Below are positions 5,005-43,083 of a stretch of DNA of 64,000 bases, piece after piece. Position 1 is the first letter of the stretch. Each line of letters begins with the position of its first letter. The translations under genes and the position numbers were made by a program. Under the pieces are notes generated by a model. That model searched no databases. It had not been told where the DNA came from and saw nothing but the letters and a program-made list of their open reading frames with translations. Source of the stretch: a virus; the IMG/VR virus record IMGVR_UViG_3300022937_000008, positions 1 to 64,000 of that record, one strand, 5' to 3'.

Positions 5005-5081
5005 TGGCCTGCTTGGAAGGATTCGAACCTCCGGCCTTCAGTTCCGCAAACTGACGCTCTATCCAACTGAGCTACAAGCAG
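5005..5081 (-). tRNA. tRNA-Arg(GCG)
   Basis: Acceptor CTGCTTG/CAAGCAG, discriminator G plus encoded CCA; D-loop AGTTGGATA (A20); anticodon arm TCAGT-TTGCGGA-ACTGA; T-arm GGAGG-TTCGAAT-CCTTC. Confidence 0.92.
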
Positions 5082-6000: not shown

Positions 6001-6609
6001 TTATTTGCCTTCATCTAGACTAGACCACATCTCGTGATCTATTATTTTAGGATTCCATGATGAGAACGCACCTGGAACAGTTTCTTGCCATACAAAATTT
6101 TGCCAACACTTTTGAACATTGTGTGGACATGATTGAATATAACCATTTCCTTTTGTCCATGCATTATTACTTGCCTCATTCATATAGTGTACCCATACGT
6201 CCCAGAAACCTCTAGATTTCTTTTTACGATTCTGCATGGTCATTATATAAACATCGTAATTATTAATTTCTTTTAACTTGTCAACTAGTATACATGATAC
6301 TGTGAAACCTTGTAGCATTTCAGAAGGTTTCATTCTAAACTCTGGAAAGGTATATATTCTATTAAAGTGACGTGCTACATTAGGAGGAAATCTTCCATCA
6401 TTAAAAACTCCTCCCATTATGATCGGTTGGCCTGTGCTTTTTTTAAACAACACACCATAACCTGAATGGTCTTCTATTACTAGATTTTCTTTGGTATAAT
6501 TTTCTTTAAGCCAGTTATCTTCTTTAAGACATTCGTGTCTGATCTCTTCGAATTCAGAATCAGATTCAAAAAATATTTTACATTCGATGTCGTTTAGATC
6601 ATATTTCAT
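6001..6609 (-). CDS. hypothetical protein
   Basis: 202 aa; TATAAATA upstream near 6629-6636. Confidence 0.7.
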   Translation of the reverse strand: MKYDLNDIECKIFFESDSEFEEIRHECLKEDNWLKENYTKENLVIEDHSGYGVLFKKSTGQPIIMGGVFNDGRFPPNVARHFNRIYTFPEFRMKPSEMLQGFTVSCILVDKLKEINNYDVYIMTMQNRKKKSRGFWDVWVHYMNEASNNAWTKGNGYIQSCPHNVQKCWQNFVWQETVPGAFSSWNPKIIDHEMWSSLDEGK

Positions 6610-9636: not shown

Positions 9637-11127
9637 TTAGTATACACTCACACCATACTTCCGAGCAAACTTTTCTGCATCCTTTTTGTCATTTACCATA
9701 GGTTTTCCTTTAATGTTCAAACTAGTGTTTAATAACATAGGACACCCTGTCTTTACATACCATCTTTCCAAAAGTTCTCTTAAACCTGAATTATCACTTT
9801 TACTTACTGTTTGTACACGAGAAGTCTTGTCAACGTGACTAATAGCAGGATATTCTTCGTGTCTTCTACAAATAGATGTATATTGCATATATGGTCCAAC
9901 TGGTCCATAGAAAAACTCTTCTGCGTGTTCAGCAAGTATTACAGGAGCAAAAGGTCTATATCGTTGTCTCTTTTTAATCTTATTAACCTTGTCTTTCATA
10001 TCCTTTCCTCTAGGATCTGCAAGTAAACTTCTGTTTCCTAATGCTCTAGGTCCAAATTCTGCTTTGCCATTTGCTACACCTACTATCTTATTTGTTTTTA
10101 ATTCTTTAAATAATTTGTCTACTGGATATTCTTGCTCTATGTCATATCCAAGATACGGCGTGTTCCAATCTATATGTGTTCTTTGTTTAGCAAGAACAGC
10201 ACCAATGCTTGACCCTGCATCTCCTGGATTAGGCATAATCCAAACTTTTTCGTAATGATTAAATGCACGACTATTTGCTTTGCAATTAAGAGCACACCCA
10301 CCCATTACAACTAAATTCTTACTCTTATATTTTTTATTACAATAATCAAGTATACCAGAAAACAATTCTTCGTATATTGTTTGAGTTGCGGCAGCGATAT
10401 GTATTTTGTCAGTCCATTTATTATGAGATTCTCTCCACCATTTACAACCTCTATGTAAATTGTGTTTGAATTTTATTTCAGGAAAAATCCAGTGACTATG
10501 AGGACCTAATTCAAAAAATTCTTCTCTCATTGAATCATAAAACTTTCTATAATCTCCATACGCTGACATACCCATTAAAATATATTCATCTTCGTTAGGA
10601 GTTAGTCCTATACGTTGTGTCATTGCACTATACCAAAGTCCTATGCTGTTAGGATACCCTTGAGAATATACTTTTGTAATTTCGTTTCCTTTACCTTCCC
10701 AAACAGTAAATGTTTCAAACTCTCCTATACTGTCGATACAAACTATAGTTGCATCTGAAAATCCGCTTGTGTAGTATCCTGCGGCTGCATGACTTTCATG
10801 ATGGCTACTGTAACTAATGGGTGCATTAATGCCATATTGCTTTAAGTAGGTTTTAATATTATTAATATTCCAATTCCAACCTTGTCCAGCATATAATTGT
10901 CTTAGTGTTTTCTTAAAAGGTTTTTCATACCAAACTACTTCGTCAGGTTCTCCCCATTGCCTTGCATAATCTAACAAAGATTTATTTAGGTGAGGATCAT
11001 TTTTCAATCCGCTGAATCTCTCAGAATGACTTGCAAACAGTAATTCTAGTTTTGAAAAAATACTGTCCTTTTGAAACACTGCCAAAGAAGCATCGTGGCT
11101 GTTGGCACTAATTCCCCAAATTATCAT
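9637..11127 (-). CDS. NodU/CmcH-family carbamoyltransferase
   Basis: HDAS, SHHESHAA, DSIGE, GGCALN, PGDAG, EFGPRALGNRS, RPFAP, LLNTSLN. Confidence 0.95.
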   Translation of the reverse strand: MIIWGISANSHDASLAVFQKDSIFSKLELLFASHSERFSGLKNDPHLNKSLLDYARQWGEPDEVVWYEKPFKKTLRQLYAGQGWNWNINNIKTYLKQYGINAPISYSSHHESHAAAGYYTSGFSDATIVCIDSIGEFETFTVWEGKGNEITKVYSQGYPNSIGLWYSAMTQRIGLTPNEDEYILMGMSAYGDYRKFYDSMREEFFELGPHSHWIFPEIKFKHNLHRGCKWWRESHNKWTDKIHIAAATQTIYEELFSGILDYCNKKYKSKNLVVMGGCALNCKANSRAFNHYEKVWIMPNPGDAGSSIGAVLAKQRTHIDWNTPYLGYDIEQEYPVDKLFKELKTNKIVGVANGKAEFGPRALGNRSLLADPRGKDMKDKVNKIKKRQRYRPFAPVILAEHAEEFFYGPVGPYMQYTSICRRHEEYPAISHVDKTSRVQTVSKSDNSGLRELLERWYVKTGCPMLLNTSLNIKGKPMVNDKKDAEKFARKYGVSVY

Positions 11128-36123: not shown

Positions 36124-37206
36124 TTATTCTCCACTAGTTGCTACTTCAGCCTCCTTGCTAGTTTCCTCAACAACTTCTTCTTGATCAATGAGTTCTGGTT
36201 TAGCATTAAGGTCTGAGATTATCATATCTAATTTATCTCCAACCCACGCTTTACGATACTCAATATGGTCATTGCCTGCAAGGTCAGTGTATTTAAGTCT
36301 ATTGCCTTCTTTTTTCAAAATACCTTTACCTTCGAATAAATCAACCAGTCCTGAATAAGGATCCATTCCTGTTTCATATGGAATCTTAACCTGTACTGCT
36401 TCAAACGGTTTTGCGTAACGAGTTTTCATTACTTTACAAGCCGCTCTAATACCACGTACATCAGTTACTTTGTTACCGTCTTCATCTTCTTTCAGTTTCA
36501 ATTTACGCATTGCTACTACAATTGAACTTGCATAGATAAAGCCTTGACCACCTGAGATTTTATCATCTGGATCAAACATATCTTGTGATGCATAAGTGTG
36601 ATTAGTTGCTACAAGTCCTACATTATGTGAACCAAACATATTAACCGAATTACGAACAAGTGCTGTTAGTGCTTTAGGCTTACGACCCATATCACCTTTT
36701 AAATCACCCTTGTCAAACTGATCAACATCTGTTGGAGTCAGTAGCATACCTAGTGAATCAATTACAAACAATACTTTCGGACGATCTTCTTCTGCCATTT
36801 CTCTATACTCTTTCATAAATTCTGAAATAGTTTTAGCGACATCGTCGATCATACTCATGTTAAGTTTAAGTAATTTTTCTTCACTTGTATCAACATTAAG
36901 TGCCTGCAACCATTGTTCGTCAAGTGCGTTCTCTGAGTCAATAAGAACTACAAAGATACCTTGATCTTGTGCTGCTTTAACAATATTTGCTGAACAGAAG
37001 TATGATTTACCACTACCTGATTCACCTGCAAATACAGTTACCTTTCCTAACGGAACACCTTTGTGAAAATCTCCACTGATCAAATAATTGAGTGCATAGT
37101 TACCTGTGCTAACCCAATCAGTGGGATCATTAAAACCAATACCAAGTCCGTCAATACTTTTAGTAAGGCTTTTTCTAAATTTACTAATATCAAATGGTTT
37201 TGCCAT
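36124..37206 (-). CDS. uvsX: UvsX/RecA-like recombinase
   Basis: STGNYALN, GESGSGKS, DSENA, IDSLG, TNH, SGG; AAGGAG SD before MAKPFD. Confidence 0.95.
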   Translation of the reverse strand: MAKPFDISKFRKSLTKSIDGLGIGFNDPTDWVSTGNYALNYLISGDFHKGVPLGKVTVFAGESGSGKSYFCSANIVKAAQDQGIFVVLIDSENALDEQWLQALNVDTSEEKLLKLNMSMIDDVAKTISEFMKEYREMAEEDRPKVLFVIDSLGMLLTPTDVDQFDKGDLKGDMGRKPKALTALVRNSVNMFGSHNVGLVATNHTYASQDMFDPDDKISGGQGFIYASSIVVAMRKLKLKEDEDGNKVTDVRGIRAACKVMKTRYAKPFEAVQVKIPYETGMDPYSGLVDLFEGKGILKKEGNRLKYTDLAGNDHIEYRKAWVGDKLDMIISDLNAKPELIDQEEVVEETSKEAEVATSGE

Positions 37207-37227
37207 GTTTATCTCCTTCCATATACT

Positions 37228-37252
37228 ATAGGGAGTGACTAGCACTCCCTAT
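37228..37252. terminator. stem-loop between gp32 and uvsX
   Basis: ATAGGGAGTG-ACTAG-CACTCCCTAT; no U-tract on the minus strand, so possibly a processing or attenuation site. Confidence 0.5.
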
Positions 37253-37262
37253 GTATTTTTTA

Positions 37263-38246
37263 TTAGCCTTGTTGTCTGTTACGAATCATTGCAAGAATAT
37301 CTTGCGCTCTATTTGCGCTGTCATTACCTGCTGTAGATTCTTCAGCCGCTGGTGCTGCTGTTTCAGTTACTGGCTCTGCCGCTGGAGTTGGAGTTGCTGC
37401 TGCCGGTGCAGATGGTGCTGCCTTACTTGTTACATTCGGATCACCTGTCTGCTGTGACATACCTGCTGGACGGAAGTATTGTCCCCAACGTTCCATATCA
37501 TATGCTTCACCGTCTACTGACGCTTCAAACATTTCTTTCATTACTTTAAGTTCAACTTCAGTTGGCTTCTTAGGTAAGAAGTCTGATAAGTTAAACAATC
37601 CATGACTATCAACTGCTGCTTGTTCTTCATCAGTTAATGATCTTTCTCTACGTGACCATTGTGATGTTGAGTAATCAGCATAGCCGCCTTTAGAAGTTTT
37701 CTTAATTCTAAAGTCTACGCCTTTTAGATAATCTGTTGGAAGTTCTTCCAACTCAGGATCCATTAAAGCACTTTTAATAATTTGGAAAATTTGTGGTCCA
37801 ATAATAAAACGTCTAATTGGATTATCTGGGGTAGTTTCTTCGTTTAGTGGATCATCTGAAACAAAGCCTTGGAAAATGTATGAACGCTTTTTCCAATACT
37901 TACGGCCCATATCTTCTAGTGACTTGTCTTTAAACCAGCCACGTACTTCAGATAGGATCGGACAAGTAGTACCGTCATTGTACATTTCCACGCATGGAAC
38001 CTGAACAATTGTTTGACGATTGTCTGACTCGCCTTTAACTCCCGCAAATGGAAGTTTGATCATTGCACGTTCAACCCAAAAGAATGTGTTGGCTGAGTTA
38101 CCATCTGGTAAGAACCTTACCACGGCTTCTTTGCCTTCTTGCATATTCCAATGTGGGTAAACTGCGTTATCGCCGCCACCTGTGTTTCCAGATGTACGTG
38201 TTTGAGCTTCTTGAAGTTTAGCTCGGATTTCTGCTAATGTTGCCAT
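37263..38246 (-). CDS. gp32: gp32-like single-stranded DNA-binding protein
   Basis: VRFLP, PC..CP, YWKKRSY, G.DFRIKK..KGGYADYSTS; Ala/Pro linker. Confidence 0.9.
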   Translation of the reverse strand: MATLAEIRAKLQEAQTRTSGNTGGGDNAVYPHWNMQEGKEAVVRFLPDGNSANTFFWVERAMIKLPFAGVKGESDNRQTIVQVPCVEMYNDGTTCPILSEVRGWFKDKSLEDMGRKYWKKRSYIFQGFVSDDPLNEETTPDNPIRRFIIGPQIFQIIKSALMDPELEELPTDYLKGVDFRIKKTSKGGYADYSTSQWSRRERSLTDEEQAAVDSHGLFNLSDFLPKKPTEVELKVMKEMFEASVDGEAYDMERWGQYFRPAGMSQQTGDPNVTSKAAPSAPAAATPTPAAEPVTETAAPAAEESTAGNDSANRAQDILAMIRNRQQG

Positions 38247-38307
38247 TTTTGTAGCCTCCTTTGTTGCCTAATGTAAAAATGTCATTTATGCCTAATGCAC
38301 AATATGT

Positions 38308-38336
38308 ATTATGTGCTCTTTTATTTATCTTGTCAA
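38308..38336 (-). promoter_or_regulatory. nested early and late promoter of gp32
   Basis: TTGACA-N17-CATAAT with GATAAATA inside the spacer. Confidence 0.7.
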
Positions 38337-38368
38337 CAAGATTCTTAAATTTTTTTATTCCAAAGTTT

Positions 38369-38533
38369 TTAAGCGCAGCCGTTTTCTTCCATACAAGGCC
38401 AATCTGTGTCATCTGTGTCGACCTTACACGCTGCTAAAACTACAGGATCGTATGTTTCGCCTCTTTGCCATTCTATGTCATAACCTGCACAGCCTGACAT
38501 AAGTGCAGCAATAAACATCATTCTACCTGTCAT
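38369..38533 (-). CDS. small lipoprotein (54 aa; not in ORF track)
   Basis: MTGRMMFIAALMSGCAGYDIEWQRGETYDPVVLAACKVDTDDTDWPCMEENGCA; lipobox MSGC. Confidence 0.55.
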   Translation of the reverse strand: MTGRMMFIAALMSGCAGYDIEWQRGETYDPVVLAACKVDTDDTDWPCMEENGCA

Positions 38534-38747
38534 AGTCTGATCCTTTATTAAATGATTGTATGTCTATGCAGATTTCTAATTGTATGTTTGATAGTGTTTT
38601 AGGATCTTGATCGCAATGAATAGTACCGTGCTGTACACTTTCATGCATATCAGGTTCTTTACTTATAGGTCCATACCAAATTAAAAATGCAAATAAACCA
38701 ATGATTAACAATAAACCCCAACCGCTTGGGTTTGGTGCTTTATCCAT
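38523..38747 (-). CDS. small single-TM protein
   Basis: N-terminal TM, two Cys. Confidence 0.65.
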   Translation of the reverse strand: MDKAPNPSGWGLLLIIGLFAFLIWYGPISKEPDMHESVQHGTIHCDQDPKTLSNIQLEICIDIQSFNKGSDYDR

Positions 38748-38756
38748 TTTTACTTC

Positions 38757-38918
38757 CTAAACGCAGTCGCCTATATCTAATAGTCTTAGATAGACTCCGC
38801 GATCATATTCATCTTTAGATAACCAATTTCCTTTACTAAAGACAGCAAGGTTACCATTTTGATCTAGTGCTTGTTGTCCTTCGAAAGGTTCAGGTATCTC
38901 CCTTACAACAACTTTCAT
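38757..38918 (-). CDS. hypothetical protein (53 aa; not in ORF track)
   Basis: MKVVVREIPEPFEGQQALDQNG...LDIGDCV; AAGGA SD. Confidence 0.6.
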   Translation of the reverse strand: MKVVVREIPEPFEGQQALDQNGNLAVFSKGNWLSKDEYDRGVYLRLLDIGDCV

Positions 38919-38944
38919 AATAATTCCTTTTGAGAATGTTAACT

Positions 38945-38980
38945 AAAAATGCTCCGCTTTGTGAGCGGAGCATAGTTTTT
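38945..38980. terminator. bidirectional rho-independent terminator downstream of pqqA
   Basis: ATGCTCCGCT-TTGTG-AGCGGAGCAT with A-run and T-run flanks. Confidence 0.85.
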
Positions 38981-38992
38981 ACGCAAATAAAA

Positions 38993-39064
38993 TTACTTGT
39001 TCATGATGTACATAGTAACTTCAAATCCAAAGCGCATTTCTTCTGCTACTGGCTTAGTCCACAT
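38993..39064 (-). CDS. pqqA: pyrroloquinoline quinone precursor peptide PqqA (23 aa; not in ORF track)
   Basis: MWTKPVAEEMRFGFEVTMYIMNK: W.KP leader and GFEVTMY with the ExxxY core; AAGGAG SD; own terminator. Confidence 0.93.
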   Translation of the reverse strand: MWTKPVAEEMRFGFEVTMYIMNK

Positions 39065-39144
39065 AATGTGTCTCCTTTTCAGATTAAATTATGTAAACAG
39101 TTCATCGGAGATGCTGACCCAAAGTCCGATTTGAGTTCACCTAG

Positions 39145-39175
39145 AAAATAAAAGTGTAGTATTGCTACTACACTT
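39145..39175 (-). terminator. GNRA-loop hairpin / terminator upstream of pqqA
   Basis: AAGTGTAGTA-GCAA-TACTACACTT then TTATTTT. Confidence 0.65.
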
Positions 39176-39227
39176 CTATTTAACTCTATTATAAATGATT
39201 AATTAAAAAAATCAATAAAGAAAATCA

Positions 39228-41480
39228 TTAAAACTGTATAAGTGATTTAATACGTTCTAATTCTTCTAGTTCTTCTGCGCCTTGTTCTTGGTGTGGAGCC
39301 ATTCTTTCTACCATTTTACGAGCAATTGTTCCAGCCTGTTCACCAAACTTTTTGTCTACCATTACTGCAACGCCTTCTGGTCCTTTAGGGAATGTGCCTG
39401 AATTTGTATCATAAAACGAATGTACAAATTTTGCAACATCTTCTAGTGTATGTTCTTCACCGTCTGAAGTCTTAAACTTAGTGCCTTTCTTAGCACCCTG
39501 TGATTTTAGGTCCTGAACTTTTTTGCTAAATTCATTACCTTCGGGCATATCATCCTGTCCTACATACTTGTAGTTGCCTTTGTCATCAAAGTCGTTTTCA
39601 ATTGTATCGATGGCAAATTTGATCTCCATCGGATCCGCTTTCTCGCCCTTGATTGCATTAATGACTTCTTGCTTGGACATCTTAAGTCCACTTTCCTTGT
39701 CACCGTCGTTGGTATAGTCTGAAATTAATTCATCAACACCAATCATTATGTCTGACATTCCGCCTTCTTTAGTAACGCCTTCTTCTGCATATGATTCTGC
39801 TTGATAACCTGCTTGTTCTAGAGCATCTAAAATTTTCTCTCTAGGAGTCATTGTATGAATTATAACGCCGCCTTGTTTGGCTTCGTCTGGTTCACAAGCA
39901 GCCTTAATACCTTTGCTTTGTAATTCTTTTTCCATTGATGCACAAGCCTTTTCATCAATGCCTCTATCTTCGTCATAGTCTCCGTCAACATAAATTGCAT
40001 GAGCATATGGCTCTGATTGCCCTTCATATCCTGATGCTTCTTGTTGTGGTTCAACTTCATCTGCACCAACTGCTGGTTCATCAGTCATATCACCGAAATC
40101 TAATTCTTCAGCAACTTCAGGTGCATTTTCATCAATCCATGCTTTAACTAAAGATCTAATATCTGCGTTAGCATCTTCTGAAGCTTTCTTTTTAATGTCT
40201 TGCTCTAATTTTGGATCTTCAATAATGCCTTCTAAACTTTGAATAGCATTAGTACCATCTACGCCTGCTTGGAATTCTTGACCCACTAGTTCATTTAATT
40301 TTTTAATCATGTCAGCCTTTTCTTCATCGTCTGCCATTACTAATGGTGATTCTTCGCCTAGTGCAGTTGCCCAGTTTTCAAATTTATCAAAAATATCTGA
40401 TTTTAATTGTTCTTCTGTTTGAGGTGCTTCAACATCCTTTGTCATTTCGACTATGTCGTCGTAGCCTACTGTTTCTTCTTCTTTCATCAATCTATATAAA
40501 ACTGGAAAGACTTCTGCAATATCCTCTTTGAAATTTTTAACTGTAAATTTTTCTTTAAATTGTTCCATTACATCATCAGGTACTTCATAACCTTGTTGTG
40601 CTGCAAAGGATTCTCTATATGATTCGTAATGTGCCTGTTTCGCTAATTTAGCAACTGTTTCTCTTAGATTATCAAGTTGCATTTTACTACGCTCAACGAT
40701 TGAATTTGTGTCGGAGTTCATTAAATCGTTTCTTACTACGTAATTTGTAAAACTTTTTAGTTGAGCAATTTCTTCACTCATCTTGATAATACTTTCACCA
40801 ATTTCATCGTATGGTAATCCACCATTAGCAACGTGACGTTGCATAGCACGAGCTCCTGCTAAATGGATAAATGGATATTTAAATCTTTCACCTGATGAAT
40901 TTTCTACAAACAACGCAGCGATATTTCTTGATCTATCTCCTGGTCTTTGTTCATGATCATCAGCTAATGTTTTGCTGTGTTTAATAATTAATCTTGTATC
41001 TTCTAGTTTTTGGAAACTTTGCTTCTTCGTTCCATAAAGTGAGCTCTCATTCATTACGTTTTCTCCGACAGGCTTAGTAATTGTATCATTGTCTGCTTTA
41101 GGTGTTGCATACTGACTTAGGAAACTGTAGTCTCTTTTGTCTAGATTGTCTTTTGTAATATCTCTAGTATCAAATGCTAGTAATCTAAGTTTTGCAAATT
41201 GACGAAGTTCTCTTAAAAATTTATACCACCCTGTTTTTTGTTTATCGTCCATACCTTCAGTAATACCACTTGAAAAGTATACTTTCATTGAATTAGGCTC
41301 AGCTAGGCTAATGCTAACATGACCTAATCTTTTGTCATTTTCTACATAATCAAAGTCAAAAAATCTAGCGTCTTCAGGGTTAATTGTAATCGCGCCAGCT
41401 GCTTCACCTAACTTTAAGCCAGTGAATCTACTTCTAATTTTGTAGAACAAGTCTGTTGATATATTACCGGTTGCATCCAT
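39228..41480 (-). CDS. large acidic late protein, probably head-associated
   Basis: 750 aa directly downstream of terminase; GATAAATA promoter. Confidence 0.7.
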   Translation of the reverse strand: MDATGNISTDLFYKIRSRFTGLKLGEAAGAITINPEDARFFDFDYVENDKRLGHVSISLAEPNSMKVYFSSGITEGMDDKQKTGWYKFLRELRQFAKLRLLAFDTRDITKDNLDKRDYSFLSQYATPKADNDTITKPVGENVMNESSLYGTKKQSFQKLEDTRLIIKHSKTLADDHEQRPGDRSRNIAALFVENSSGERFKYPFIHLAGARAMQRHVANGGLPYDEIGESIIKMSEEIAQLKSFTNYVVRNDLMNSDTNSIVERSKMQLDNLRETVAKLAKQAHYESYRESFAAQQGYEVPDDVMEQFKEKFTVKNFKEDIAEVFPVLYRLMKEEETVGYDDIVEMTKDVEAPQTEEQLKSDIFDKFENWATALGEESPLVMADDEEKADMIKKLNELVGQEFQAGVDGTNAIQSLEGIIEDPKLEQDIKKKASEDANADIRSLVKAWIDENAPEVAEELDFGDMTDEPAVGADEVEPQQEASGYEGQSEPYAHAIYVDGDYDEDRGIDEKACASMEKELQSKGIKAACEPDEAKQGGVIIHTMTPREKILDALEQAGYQAESYAEEGVTKEGGMSDIMIGVDELISDYTNDGDKESGLKMSKQEVINAIKGEKADPMEIKFAIDTIENDFDDKGNYKYVGQDDMPEGNEFSKKVQDLKSQGAKKGTKFKTSDGEEHTLEDVAKFVHSFYDTNSGTFPKGPEGVAVMVDKKFGEQAGTIARKMVERMAPHQEQGAEELEELERIKSLIQF

Positions 41481-41493
41481 AGTAATGTATTTA

Positions 41494-43083
41494 TCAATAT
41501 CCTCCGCTAACGAAGATCGGCATTGGGAACTGATCTTCAGTCAATCTTTCAGTCAATCTTTCGTATATTTTTGGATCCCAATCTGCTAATAGATTAGCCA
41601 TTCGTACAATTAACAATACAGCTGACACTAAATCGTCGTGTTCACCGCTTTTGGCAGCATACCCTGTACCGTGCGATACAAATGTTTTAAGTTCTGATAT
41701 AAGCGGTTTGCTGTATATTGTAAGTTTATTCTTTTCAAGTAGATTTTTAAATGAACTACACGCTGTAATTTTTGTTTTATGTGTGGTGTTAAACCCTTTT
41801 CTATAACGTCTTACGTGTCCTTTTCTAATAGGCTCACTTAAAAACAATCCTGCGAAGTTTTCTTCACCAATATCTTTAATTACAACAAGTGCTGCTTCGC
41901 CTAGTGTATTGTTTTCAACACTATAGTAAATAACAGGATTGTCGTTGCCTTTTTCTCTCATTTGTTCAGAGATATATTGACAAAGATCTTTTAAAATTCT
42001 AATTTGTCCTTGTACAGGAGTTGTATTATGACGCCATTCTGCTACTTGAGTTAGACTAGGCATTTCAAATACTTGAATAGCAGCATAGTCACCACCTGTG
42101 CCTAAACTAGGATCTAAACTAATAAGATATGTTGCTCTTGGATTAATATCTTTATACCAACGTGTTTGACCCATCGACATTACAGGTTCAACACCTTCAA
42201 GCTCTGCTAGTTTAACTGAATTAATAAGTGTTTCATCAAAGATCAAGAACTCACAATCAAATTCTCGGCGGAATCTTTCTTCACCAATCTTGGCTTTTTC
42301 TTCTGCCGCCCATGCGTCATCTCTATCTGGATGTTCTTCCCAATGTGCAAAGTAAGGAAAGAAACCGTTAGTTCCTACCTTTTGATCGTTGCCATACTCG
42401 TCGAATTTTTTATTTGCTTCTGTCCATATCATAGCAAATTGATCTTCATCTGAGTTTGGTGTTGAAGTTACAATTGCCTTACCGCCTGTTGATAGTGTAG
42501 GTGAAAGCGCAGTCCAAAACTCTCGAGCTTTTTCAGGAGGTTGCACAAACGCAAACTCGTCACAGTATATTAATGAAAGTGATTTACCACGTCCAGTATC
42601 TTCTGTTGTAGTAGTTGCTTGTATTCTACTACCGTTATCAAATTCAATAGTGTTTCTGTTATAGGTATAGATACCTGCACGAATAAAGTCAGGTAAGTTT
42701 TCATAACCGAATCTATATCTGTTCATGATATCCTGCGCACCTGTATATTTGTGTGCAGCAATTAGTACTTGTGCTTCTGGTGTAAACATACAATACCATA
42801 ATAGATATGCCGCAGCACAAGTTGTTTTACCCATCTGTCTAGGTAACATTGCTACAGTATATCTGTAATCGTGATATGCTCTTAATAATTCTTCTTGATA
42901 ACCGTAAGGAGCAAATTTCATTGAACCTTTAGTTGGGTGCTGGATCTTAATAAAGTTTTTAGCAAAGTATAATGGACCGTCAACAGGATCCATACACTTT
43001 TCTAAGTGATTTAATTCATCAATTGTGTATTTTATCTTACTATGGGCCTTCTTAATTTGAACGCCGTCTAAACTCTTTGCCAT
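41494..43083 (-). CDS. gp17: terminase large subunit
   Basis: YQ, PRQMGKT, GRG, YCDEFAF, TSTPN, RREFDCEF, DPSLGTGGDY, HDDLV. Confidence 0.97.
   Translation of the reverse strand: MAKSLDGVQIKKAHSKIKYTIDELNHLEKCMDPVDGPLYFAKNFIKIQHPTKGSMKFAPYGYQEELLRAYHDYRYTVAMLPRQMGKTTCAAAYLLWYCMFTPEAQVLIAAHKYTGAQDIMNRYRFGYENLPDFIRAGIYTYNRNTIEFDNGSRIQATTTTEDTGRGKSLSLIYCDEFAFVQPPEKAREFWTALSPTLSTGGKAIVTSTPNSDEDQFAMIWTEANKKFDEYGNDQKVGTNGFFPYFAHWEEHPDRDDAWAAEEKAKIGEERFRREFDCEFLIFDETLINSVKLAELEGVEPVMSMGQTRWYKDINPRATYLISLDPSLGTGGDYAAIQVFEMPSLTQVAEWRHNTTPVQGQIRILKDLCQYISEQMREKGNDNPVIYYSVENNTLGEAALVVIKDIGEENFAGLFLSEPIRKGHVRRYRKGFNTTHKTKITACSSFKNLLEKNKLTIYSKPLISELKTFVSHGTGYAAKSGEHDDLVSAVLLIVRMANLLADWDPKIYERLTERLTEDQFPMPIFVSGGY

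Follow-up and report, generated by a model that had tools for sequence, protein, structure and literature searches.

The minus-strand open reading frame (ORF) at 39064-38993 of the DNA analysed here is a genuine, intact pqqA gene, carried by a jumbo T4-like myovirus and flanked by viral genes on both sides. It probably serves the phage as a host-derived auxiliary metabolic gene that supplies the PQQ precursor, so that PQQ synthesis and methanol oxidation by the host continue during infection. The DNA, called the window below, is a 64,000-nt stretch from the start of an IMG/VR virus record that is linear, 114,291 bp long and, by the CheckV estimate, 32% complete.

A genuine pqqA gene in the window

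The gene and the signals immediately around it are as follows.

38993..39064, minus strand: pqqA, 23 codons plus stop (72 nt), ATG start, intact ORF
39072..39077, minus strand: Shine-Dalgarno sequence AAGGAG, 7 nt 5' of the pqqA ATG
38949..38973, minus strand: intrinsic terminator hairpin, 10-11 pairs of which 6 are G-C, with a T run to about 38944
39146..39181, minus strand: hairpin and U run, 3' of the upstream structural gene and 5' of the leader
39188..39215, minus strand: sigma-70-like candidate promoter TTGATT-16-TATAAT, 10 of 12 matches, directly after the upstream stop codon

The first-pass annotation of this DNA had described a 72-nt minus-strand ORF with an AAGGAG Shine-Dalgarno sequence and a strong terminator of its own, and all three were located. 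Chance ORFs are common here, with 81 of at least 20 aa in 6 kb, and the length of the pqqA ORF is therefore no proof by itself. Its identity as PqqA, for which the same annotation had named an HMM search as a check, was confirmed by two curated models that the translation, MWTKPVAEEMRFGFEVTMYIMNK, passes over their full length: PF08042 (E 1.4e-9, 38.1 bits against a cut-off of 21.1, model positions 1-19 of 19) and TIGR02107 (E 5e-9, 35.8 bits against a cut-off of 20, model positions 1-21 of 21). Even at E ≤ 1, the locus is the sole match to a PqqA model in the 114-kb record. The peptide also contains the Glu15-x3-Tyr19 pair (E15-V-T-M-Y19), the two residues that, as is established for the pathway, are cross-linked into the PQQ skeleton. 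This E-x-x-x-Y pair is invariant in ten phage copies that were collected without a motif filter; the remaining pqqA copies were picked by a pattern that includes the motif. Residues W2-P5 and E9-Y19 are identical to those of the common Methylophilaceae peptide, so that W2-T-K-P5, in the region that PqqD would recognise, is the same as in host peptides, and the phage has V6, E8 and I20 where the host peptide has A6, T8 and V20. The exact peptide is absent from a collection of 15 billion proteins.

Several of the expression signals are shared with other copies of the gene. AAGGAG or AGGAG stands at the equal position in phage and host pqqA copies. The terminator hairpin has a fold z-score of -5.2, and its stem has compensating substitutions in two relatives of this phage (L251 and L257). 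Among the matches listed, a terminator-like hairpin lies 3' of pqqA at 64 of the 110 loci from viruses and at 105 of the 123 from bacteria, compared with 39 of 375 control windows. The hairpin at 39181-39146 (-18.2 kcal/mol, z -6.5) has a counterpart with another stem sequence at the equivalent position in relatives, and its U run is absent in L251 and L257; it may terminate transcription of the gene upstream or, as a (protective) stem, form the 5' end of the pqqA transcript. TTGATT-16-TATAAT is a putative promoter, recognised by its match to the consensus. L251 and L257 retain both hexamers and the 16-nt spacing, with a different spacer sequence, and promoter-like sites in the 1-kb region are not commoner than in shuffled sequence.

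The phage record and the PQQ genes not found in it

The following neighbours of pqqA, all on its strand, were assigned to PHROGs families.

39228..41480, minus strand: 750-aa virion structural protein (PHROG 13484), the upstream neighbour of pqqA and our synteny anchor
41494..43083, minus strand: terminase large subunit (PHROG 36964, E 1e-121)
37263-38246, minus strand: gp32-like single-strand DNA-binding protein (PHROG 1192, E 8e-65), on the downstream side
36124-37245, minus strand: UvsX-like recombinase (PHROG 97, E 2e-70), on the downstream side

Genes for a tail sheath and a tail tube lie further upstream. The GenBank phages nearest to this one by terminase are jumbo myoviruses, those of the PA5oct group at 54.6% followed by Phosso, CBB and GAP32, a kinship in keeping with a genome size near 350 kb. 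The pqqA locus is uniform in GC content, and there is no integrase among the ten large ORFs profiled. Three small ORFs (53, 74 and 64 aa) on the minus strand at 38218-38918 of the window, between pqqA and the gp32-like gene, have no match in Pfam or PHROGs. The only glutamine riboswitch aptamer found in the window (RF01739; 4233-4281, plus strand; 56 bits, gathering score 35) is 35 kb from pqqA and therefore no part of this locus; it is adjoined by a tRNA-Arg gene (anticodon GCG; 5008-5081, minus strand).

The gene had been described as standing alone, with no pqqBCDE in the window. This holds in what is a real phage genome, and it extends beyond the window, since pqqB, C, D and E were not found in the remainder of the 114-kb record either. 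A PqqC family search was silent in all control genomes, and the absence test was therefore redone by tblastn with the PqqB-E proteins of Ca. Methylopumilus universalis as queries, each verified against NCBIfam. These queries gave 0 hits in the 114-kb record and in 126 viral loci (120 IMG/VR loci among the matches listed, plus six GenBank phage loci), and as a positive control they gave matches at 35 of the 120 bacterial pqqA loci among the matches listed. Likewise, no PQQ-dependent alcohol dehydrogenase was found in the 114-kb record. As some two thirds of the genome lie outside the record, the absence is shown for the record and not for the phage as a whole. Linkage to pqqBCDE does not define PqqA in the host family either. 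In the Ca. Methylopumilus universalis genome searched, the pqqBCDE set (L249:2984-6128) has no pqqA in front, and the three copies of that genome lie hundreds of kilobases off.

Conservation of pqqA in relatives of this phage

Relatives of the 750-aa anchor protein occur in 12 IMG/VR contigs from different metagenomes, at 60-79% identity. Ten of these contigs have sequence downstream of the anchor gene, and in nine of the ten pqqA follows directly, on the same strand; the recurrence of this arrangement in different metagenomes rules out an assembly chimera. The tenth, L250, is the most distant relative (60% identity) and has no pqqA within 6 kb downstream, which means that pqqA was either acquired later than the L250 branch or lost on it, and that it is dispensable for some members of the lineage.

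Every relative's copy of pqqA is intact. For a test of selection we used ten phage genes, none of them picked by the core motif, made up of the relatives' copies and five GenBank phage copies. Over codons 9-19, pS was 0.73 with zero amino-acid replacements (pN/pS 0.027), and amino-acid changes were restricted to positions 6-8 and 20-23. The phage gene is thus under purifying selection at the amino-acid level. Compared with the 120 bacterial loci among the matches listed, its DNA is at best 84% identical to any copy (over 95 nt), and no exact word in common exceeds 18 nt, from which we conclude that the gene has not been captured recently and is not an attachment site.

pqqA in other phages and its absence from annotations

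A tblastn search with the peptide against 50,697 GenBank phage records, the other check named in the first-pass annotation, showed that the gene is by no means confined to this lineage. All ten cultured Methylophilales/Methylophilaceae phage records that the search returned contain pqqA, at 82-87% identity, and the carriers (Venkman, four Melnitz variants, P19250A, MEP301, MEP401 and MEP402) include siphoviruses, podoviruses and myoviruses of 35-142 kb. The gene was also found in a podovirus from spring water (Manatee Spring). In Venkman, MEP301 and the Manatee Spring podovirus, pqqA opposes its neighbours and forms a unit of its own. Weak PqqA-like matches were returned from Acinetobacter phage MD-2021a (CAKLQF020000010.1, 108210-108263, and CAKLQH020000055.1, 419-472), with 66.7% identity over 18 residues and E 0.3; they may be due to chance or represent a more distant phage pqqA.

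None of the GenBank phage records annotates the gene as PqqA; it is either unannotated or called hypothetical. In the Melnitz record MZ577097.1 (L001), for example, pqqA lies at 6001-6066 on the plus strand, where the annotation shows an overlapping ORF of the other strand, MelnitzEXVC044M_152. The PqqA peptide is not represented by any PHROGs family.

We also scanned IMG/VR and bacterial contigs with a degenerate DNA pattern for M-R-F-G-F-E-V-T-M-Y, and found this core motif in at least 120 contigs of each of the two kinds. Among the matches listed, no viral pqqA locus has a stretch as long as 500 nt in common with any bacterial one, and the viral loci are therefore not host fragments.

A structured leader RNA and its origin

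The sequence between the upstream hairpin and the Shine-Dalgarno sequence contains a two-stem element with the following parts.

39093..39140, minus strand: two-stem 5' leader, consisting of P0, an internal loop, P1 and a variable tip
39140-39135 with 39098-39093, minus strand: outer stem P0, GUGAAC with GUUUAC
39130-39125 with 39109-39104, minus strand: inner 6-bp stem P1, AUCGGA with UCCGAU

Comparison of upstream regions placed this element 64-88 nt 5' of the ATG in the window, in several viral contigs and in two bacterial contigs, with an invariant internal loop whose 5' strand reads UCAA and whose 3' strand reads GA-N-N-U. The minimum free energy fold of the window sequence yields both P0 and P1; the folding energy is unremarkable (z -0.19), so that energy by itself does not single out the leader. 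The support comes from covariation. When candidates were selected by their 5' flank only, 24 were obtained, 17 of which lie at 64-88 nt upstream, and all 17 have a perfect P1 complement; under this selection no member was dropped for failing to pair. Column-wise counts over 21 distinct leader sequences gave 100% pairing in P1, with four of six pairs changed on both sides, and 82.5% pairing in P0, with five of six pairs changed on both sides. The cells changed on both sides numbered 49, versus 13.4 in shuffles, and sliding the stem partners lowered pairing to 33-46%. We relied on these slid controls, as a 'foreign stem' control, in which 43% pairing arose by chance, told us nothing. A covariance model of the leader, run over both strands of about 2.07 Mb of loci, matches solely directly 5' of pqqA. 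Rfam 15 has nothing at gathering score at the leader locus, a permissive Rfam scan of 38700-39400 gave chance-level matches only, and a literature search on pqqA and riboswitches returned nothing relevant by title or abstract.

The same covariance model was used to scan 151 Methylophilaceae genomes, and gave 11 hits, one per genome, all in genomes of 1.2-1.4 Mb. The leader stands 5' of the first gene of a tandem pqqA pair in all ten readable hits. It was not found in that scan in Ca. Methylopumilus universalis or in larger Methylophilaceae genomes. In the host genomes concerned (L263-L273), the tandem pqqA genes are about 200 nt apart and have the leader at the first gene only, and the tip of P1 forms an extra inner hairpin. 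The two bacterial contexts from the upstream comparison are ordinary chromosome, with genes for GlnRS, BirA, pseudouridine synthase, SoxYZ and GlmM.

One viral contig illustrates how the element may have reached phages. L119 shares a 173-nt patch (9645-9817) of 98.3% identity with a bacterial chromosome (L180) and nothing else, and the limits of the patch are exactly those of the leader and the first pqqA gene; transfer of the whole cassette from host to phage, which looks very recent, is thereby directly visible. Judged by their sequences, the gene and its leader are of host origin. In the cultured phages pqqA is present and the P0/P1 leader was not found with the covariance model. It is missing as well from a sub-lineage of relatives of this phage (L253, L255, L256, L259 and L260), in which pqqA directly follows the upstream hairpin. 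The peptide of this leaderless sub-lineage terminates in ...YVANR, a tail that no sampled bacterial copy has. Since both relatives and cultured phages have the gene without the leader, it is the peptide, and not the leader, that is the constant.

Conceivably, streamlined marine-type Methylophilaceae have in this leader a cis-regulatory RNA not described before, one that links pqqA translation or mRNA stability to a host signal, in which case the copy in the phage would plug into this control or escape from it. The signal may be a protein, a small RNA or a metabolite tied to PQQ, lanthanide or methanol status.

The likely host

Bacterial records with readable titles, among the matches listed, were sorted by the tail of the peptide and fall into four types.

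Tail ...YVMNK: Methylophilaceae in every record titled with a taxon below order (Methylotenera, Methylophilus, Methylopumilus, other Methylophilaceae)
Tail ...YICNR: Methylophaga
Tail ...YIYNR: Methylococcaceae
Tail ...YVCNR: Methylobacillus, Methylovorus

The tail in the window, ...YIMNK, groups with ...YVMNK. The first-pass annotation was correct in likening the EMRFGFEVTMY.MNK form to Methylophilaceae PqqA, in that all MNK-tail records naming a taxon below order, among the matches listed, belong to that family. Three host genomes that we searched have a single pqqBCDE set and dispersed pqqA copies, numbering 3, 4 and 7, and 3-12 copies have been reported for Methylophilaceae of Lake Washington (Beck et al., 2014; PMC4109929). 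Given this dispersal, a stand-alone pqqA with a terminator is the normal arrangement in hosts.

The phage gene resembles the orphan pqqA genes of Methylophilaceae in its 23 residues with identical W2-P5 and E9-Y19, its MNK tail, the spacing of its ribosome-binding site, its adjacent terminator, the lack of linkage to pqqBCDE, and the two-stem leader with the UCAA / GA-N-N-U loop. It differs from the tandem pqqA of hosts in being single and phage-encoded, and in having the leader stem ATCGGA, as opposed to GTTGAA or GTTGGA in hosts. On the basis of the 23-residue peptide and the 48-nt leader, the host most likely is, or once was, a streamlined OM43-like member of the Methylophilaceae. Of the OM43/Methylopumilus-like host proposed in the first-pass annotation, the assignment to Methylophilaceae of an OM43-like type is thus retained, on the strength of the peptide and the host-type leader, and the Methylopumilus-like part fits less well, because the single M. 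universalis genome searched has no leader.

Discussion

PqqA is consumed in the making of PQQ, at one peptide per molecule, and the enzymes of the pathway turn over catalytically. As the sole component that is consumed, PqqA would be the first to run short when a phage takes over host expression. We propose that the phage carries its own small transcription unit for the peptide, consisting of the promoter-like site, the host-type leader, a ribosome-binding site, 23 codons and the terminator. The peptide would be bound by PqqD of the host and cross-linked between Glu15 and Tyr19 by host PqqE, then trimmed by host peptidases and converted to PQQ via host PqqB and PqqC; a phage that lacks the maturation enzymes would depend on those of the host for this processing. 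PQQ would then serve as the cofactor of the periplasmic methanol dehydrogenases XoxF/MxaF, and the phage copy would sustain the supply of cofactor, and hence the energy gained from methanol, until lysis. The presence of several pqqA copies per single pqqBCDE set in host genomes is taken as a host precedent for such an effect of dosage. Expression of the gene, processing of its product by host enzymes and benefit to the phage are the parts of this proposal that we infer from sequence.

A point against precursor supply is that PQQ is a stable, non-covalently bound cofactor, so that the need for new PQQ within one infection cycle is not obvious. The peptide could also be a PQQ precursor of benefit in some way other than methanol oxidation, through another quinoprotein, as an antioxidant or as a released growth factor: nothing in the record ties the gene to a methanol dehydrogenase, no PQQ-dependent alcohol dehydrogenase was found in it, and PQQ, present at 1 nM in the published OM43 medium, is a required supplement there (PMC9004378), which suggests a value beyond one enzyme. 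We nonetheless regard this as unlikely, for peptide and leader alike are of the type found in obligate methylotrophs, and a viral population of Lake Baikal has pqqA together with a methanol dehydrogenase gene (PMC7678222). Somewhat more improbable in our judgement is a decoy or regulator, whereby the peptide or the leader RNA would titrate PqqD/PqqE or a leader-binding factor and so rewire or stop PQQ synthesis in the host. Such a role would suit the retention of a host-type leader whose conserved internal loop resembles a recognition site for a host factor, but every residue needed in a substrate has been kept and amino acids are under selection while synonymous sites are free, which is not what an RNA decoy predicts; moreover, L253 and L255 kept the gene but lost the leader, and the cultured phages have the gene without it.

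The conservation pattern also contradicts the notion that the locus is passenger DNA, a recently acquired piece of host sequence that does nothing for the phage. Transfer of exactly a leader-pqqA cassette does occur, as the 173-nt patch in L119 attests, but in the lineage described here the gene is syntenic among relatives whose flanking protein is just 60-79% identical, it is intact in every copy, its core has many synonymous and zero replacement changes, and 84% over 95 nt as the best bacterial DNA identity among the matches listed does not fit a recent capture; we give this reading very little credence. Least credible of all is an attachment site or homology patch for integration into, or recombination with, host pqqA. 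Integration into small conserved genes is frequent among phages, which then carry a duplicate of the gene's end, and the hosts in question have many pqqA copies, yet no core of DNA identical to the host was found (18 nt is the longest exact shared word, and the peptide differs at 3-4 residues, for the 120 bacterial loci among the matches listed). What the phage has, in addition, is an entire gene, complete with a ribosome-binding site and a terminator of its own, rather than a 3' end, in a genome with the architecture of a lytic T4-like jumbo myovirus and with no integrase among the ten large ORFs profiled. No rival fits the combination of amino-acid-level selection and synteny as well as precursor supply does.

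The first-pass annotation overrated the novelty of a viral pqqA as such. PqqA was described in a Methylophilaceae-infecting virus population of Lake Baikal that also has methanol dehydrogenase (Coutinho et al., 2020; PMC7678222), and viral pqqA, pqqD and pqqE were listed for viruses of reservoir sediment in 2026 (PMC13188868). In both cases the gene is on a viral contig and was read, as here, as an auxiliary metabolic gene for PQQ-dependent metabolism. The Baikal contig also encodes a methanol dehydrogenase, and none was found in the present 114-kb record; the phage studied here differs from both in belonging to a jumbo myovirus lineage with a syntenic pqqA. The accessible text of PMC7678222 and PMC13188868 mentions no leader RNA for viral pqqA. 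The cultured Methylophilales phages have in common with this phage a peptide that is 82-87% identical, encoded by an intact ORF with a ribosome-binding site and often in a small unit of its own; they are unrelated to the jumbo lineage, whose terminase is PA5oct-like, and they lack the P0/P1 leader. The Melnitz paper does not include pqqA among the auxiliary genes of that phage, and the medium of its host was supplemented with PQQ (PMC9004378). Three things are specific to the present locus: the retention of pqqA in synteny across a lineage of jumbo phages, a leader supported by covariation, and the confinement of that leader, among the 151 genomes scanned, to small-genome hosts.

By analogy, the gene may be likened to psbA (D1) of cyanophages, where the phage encodes the host component that is used fastest, so that energy lasts through infection. 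The likeness goes no further than analogy: psbA encodes a 360-aa membrane protein and its role has experimental support, whereas here we have a 23-aa peptide substrate known from sequence.

Two practical consequences follow. A 23-codon gene that is left unannotated and has no PHROGs family will be missed by surveys of viral metabolic genes, and in uncultured phages the combination of peptide type and leader may help to indicate the host. Methylotrophs of the OM43 type, which are numerous among coastal bacteria, convert phytoplankton-derived methanol to CO2 and biomass. If phages sustain the supply of the methanol-oxidising cofactor, infected cells would keep processing one-carbon compounds, and viral lysis and carbon flux would then be linked more tightly than has been assumed.
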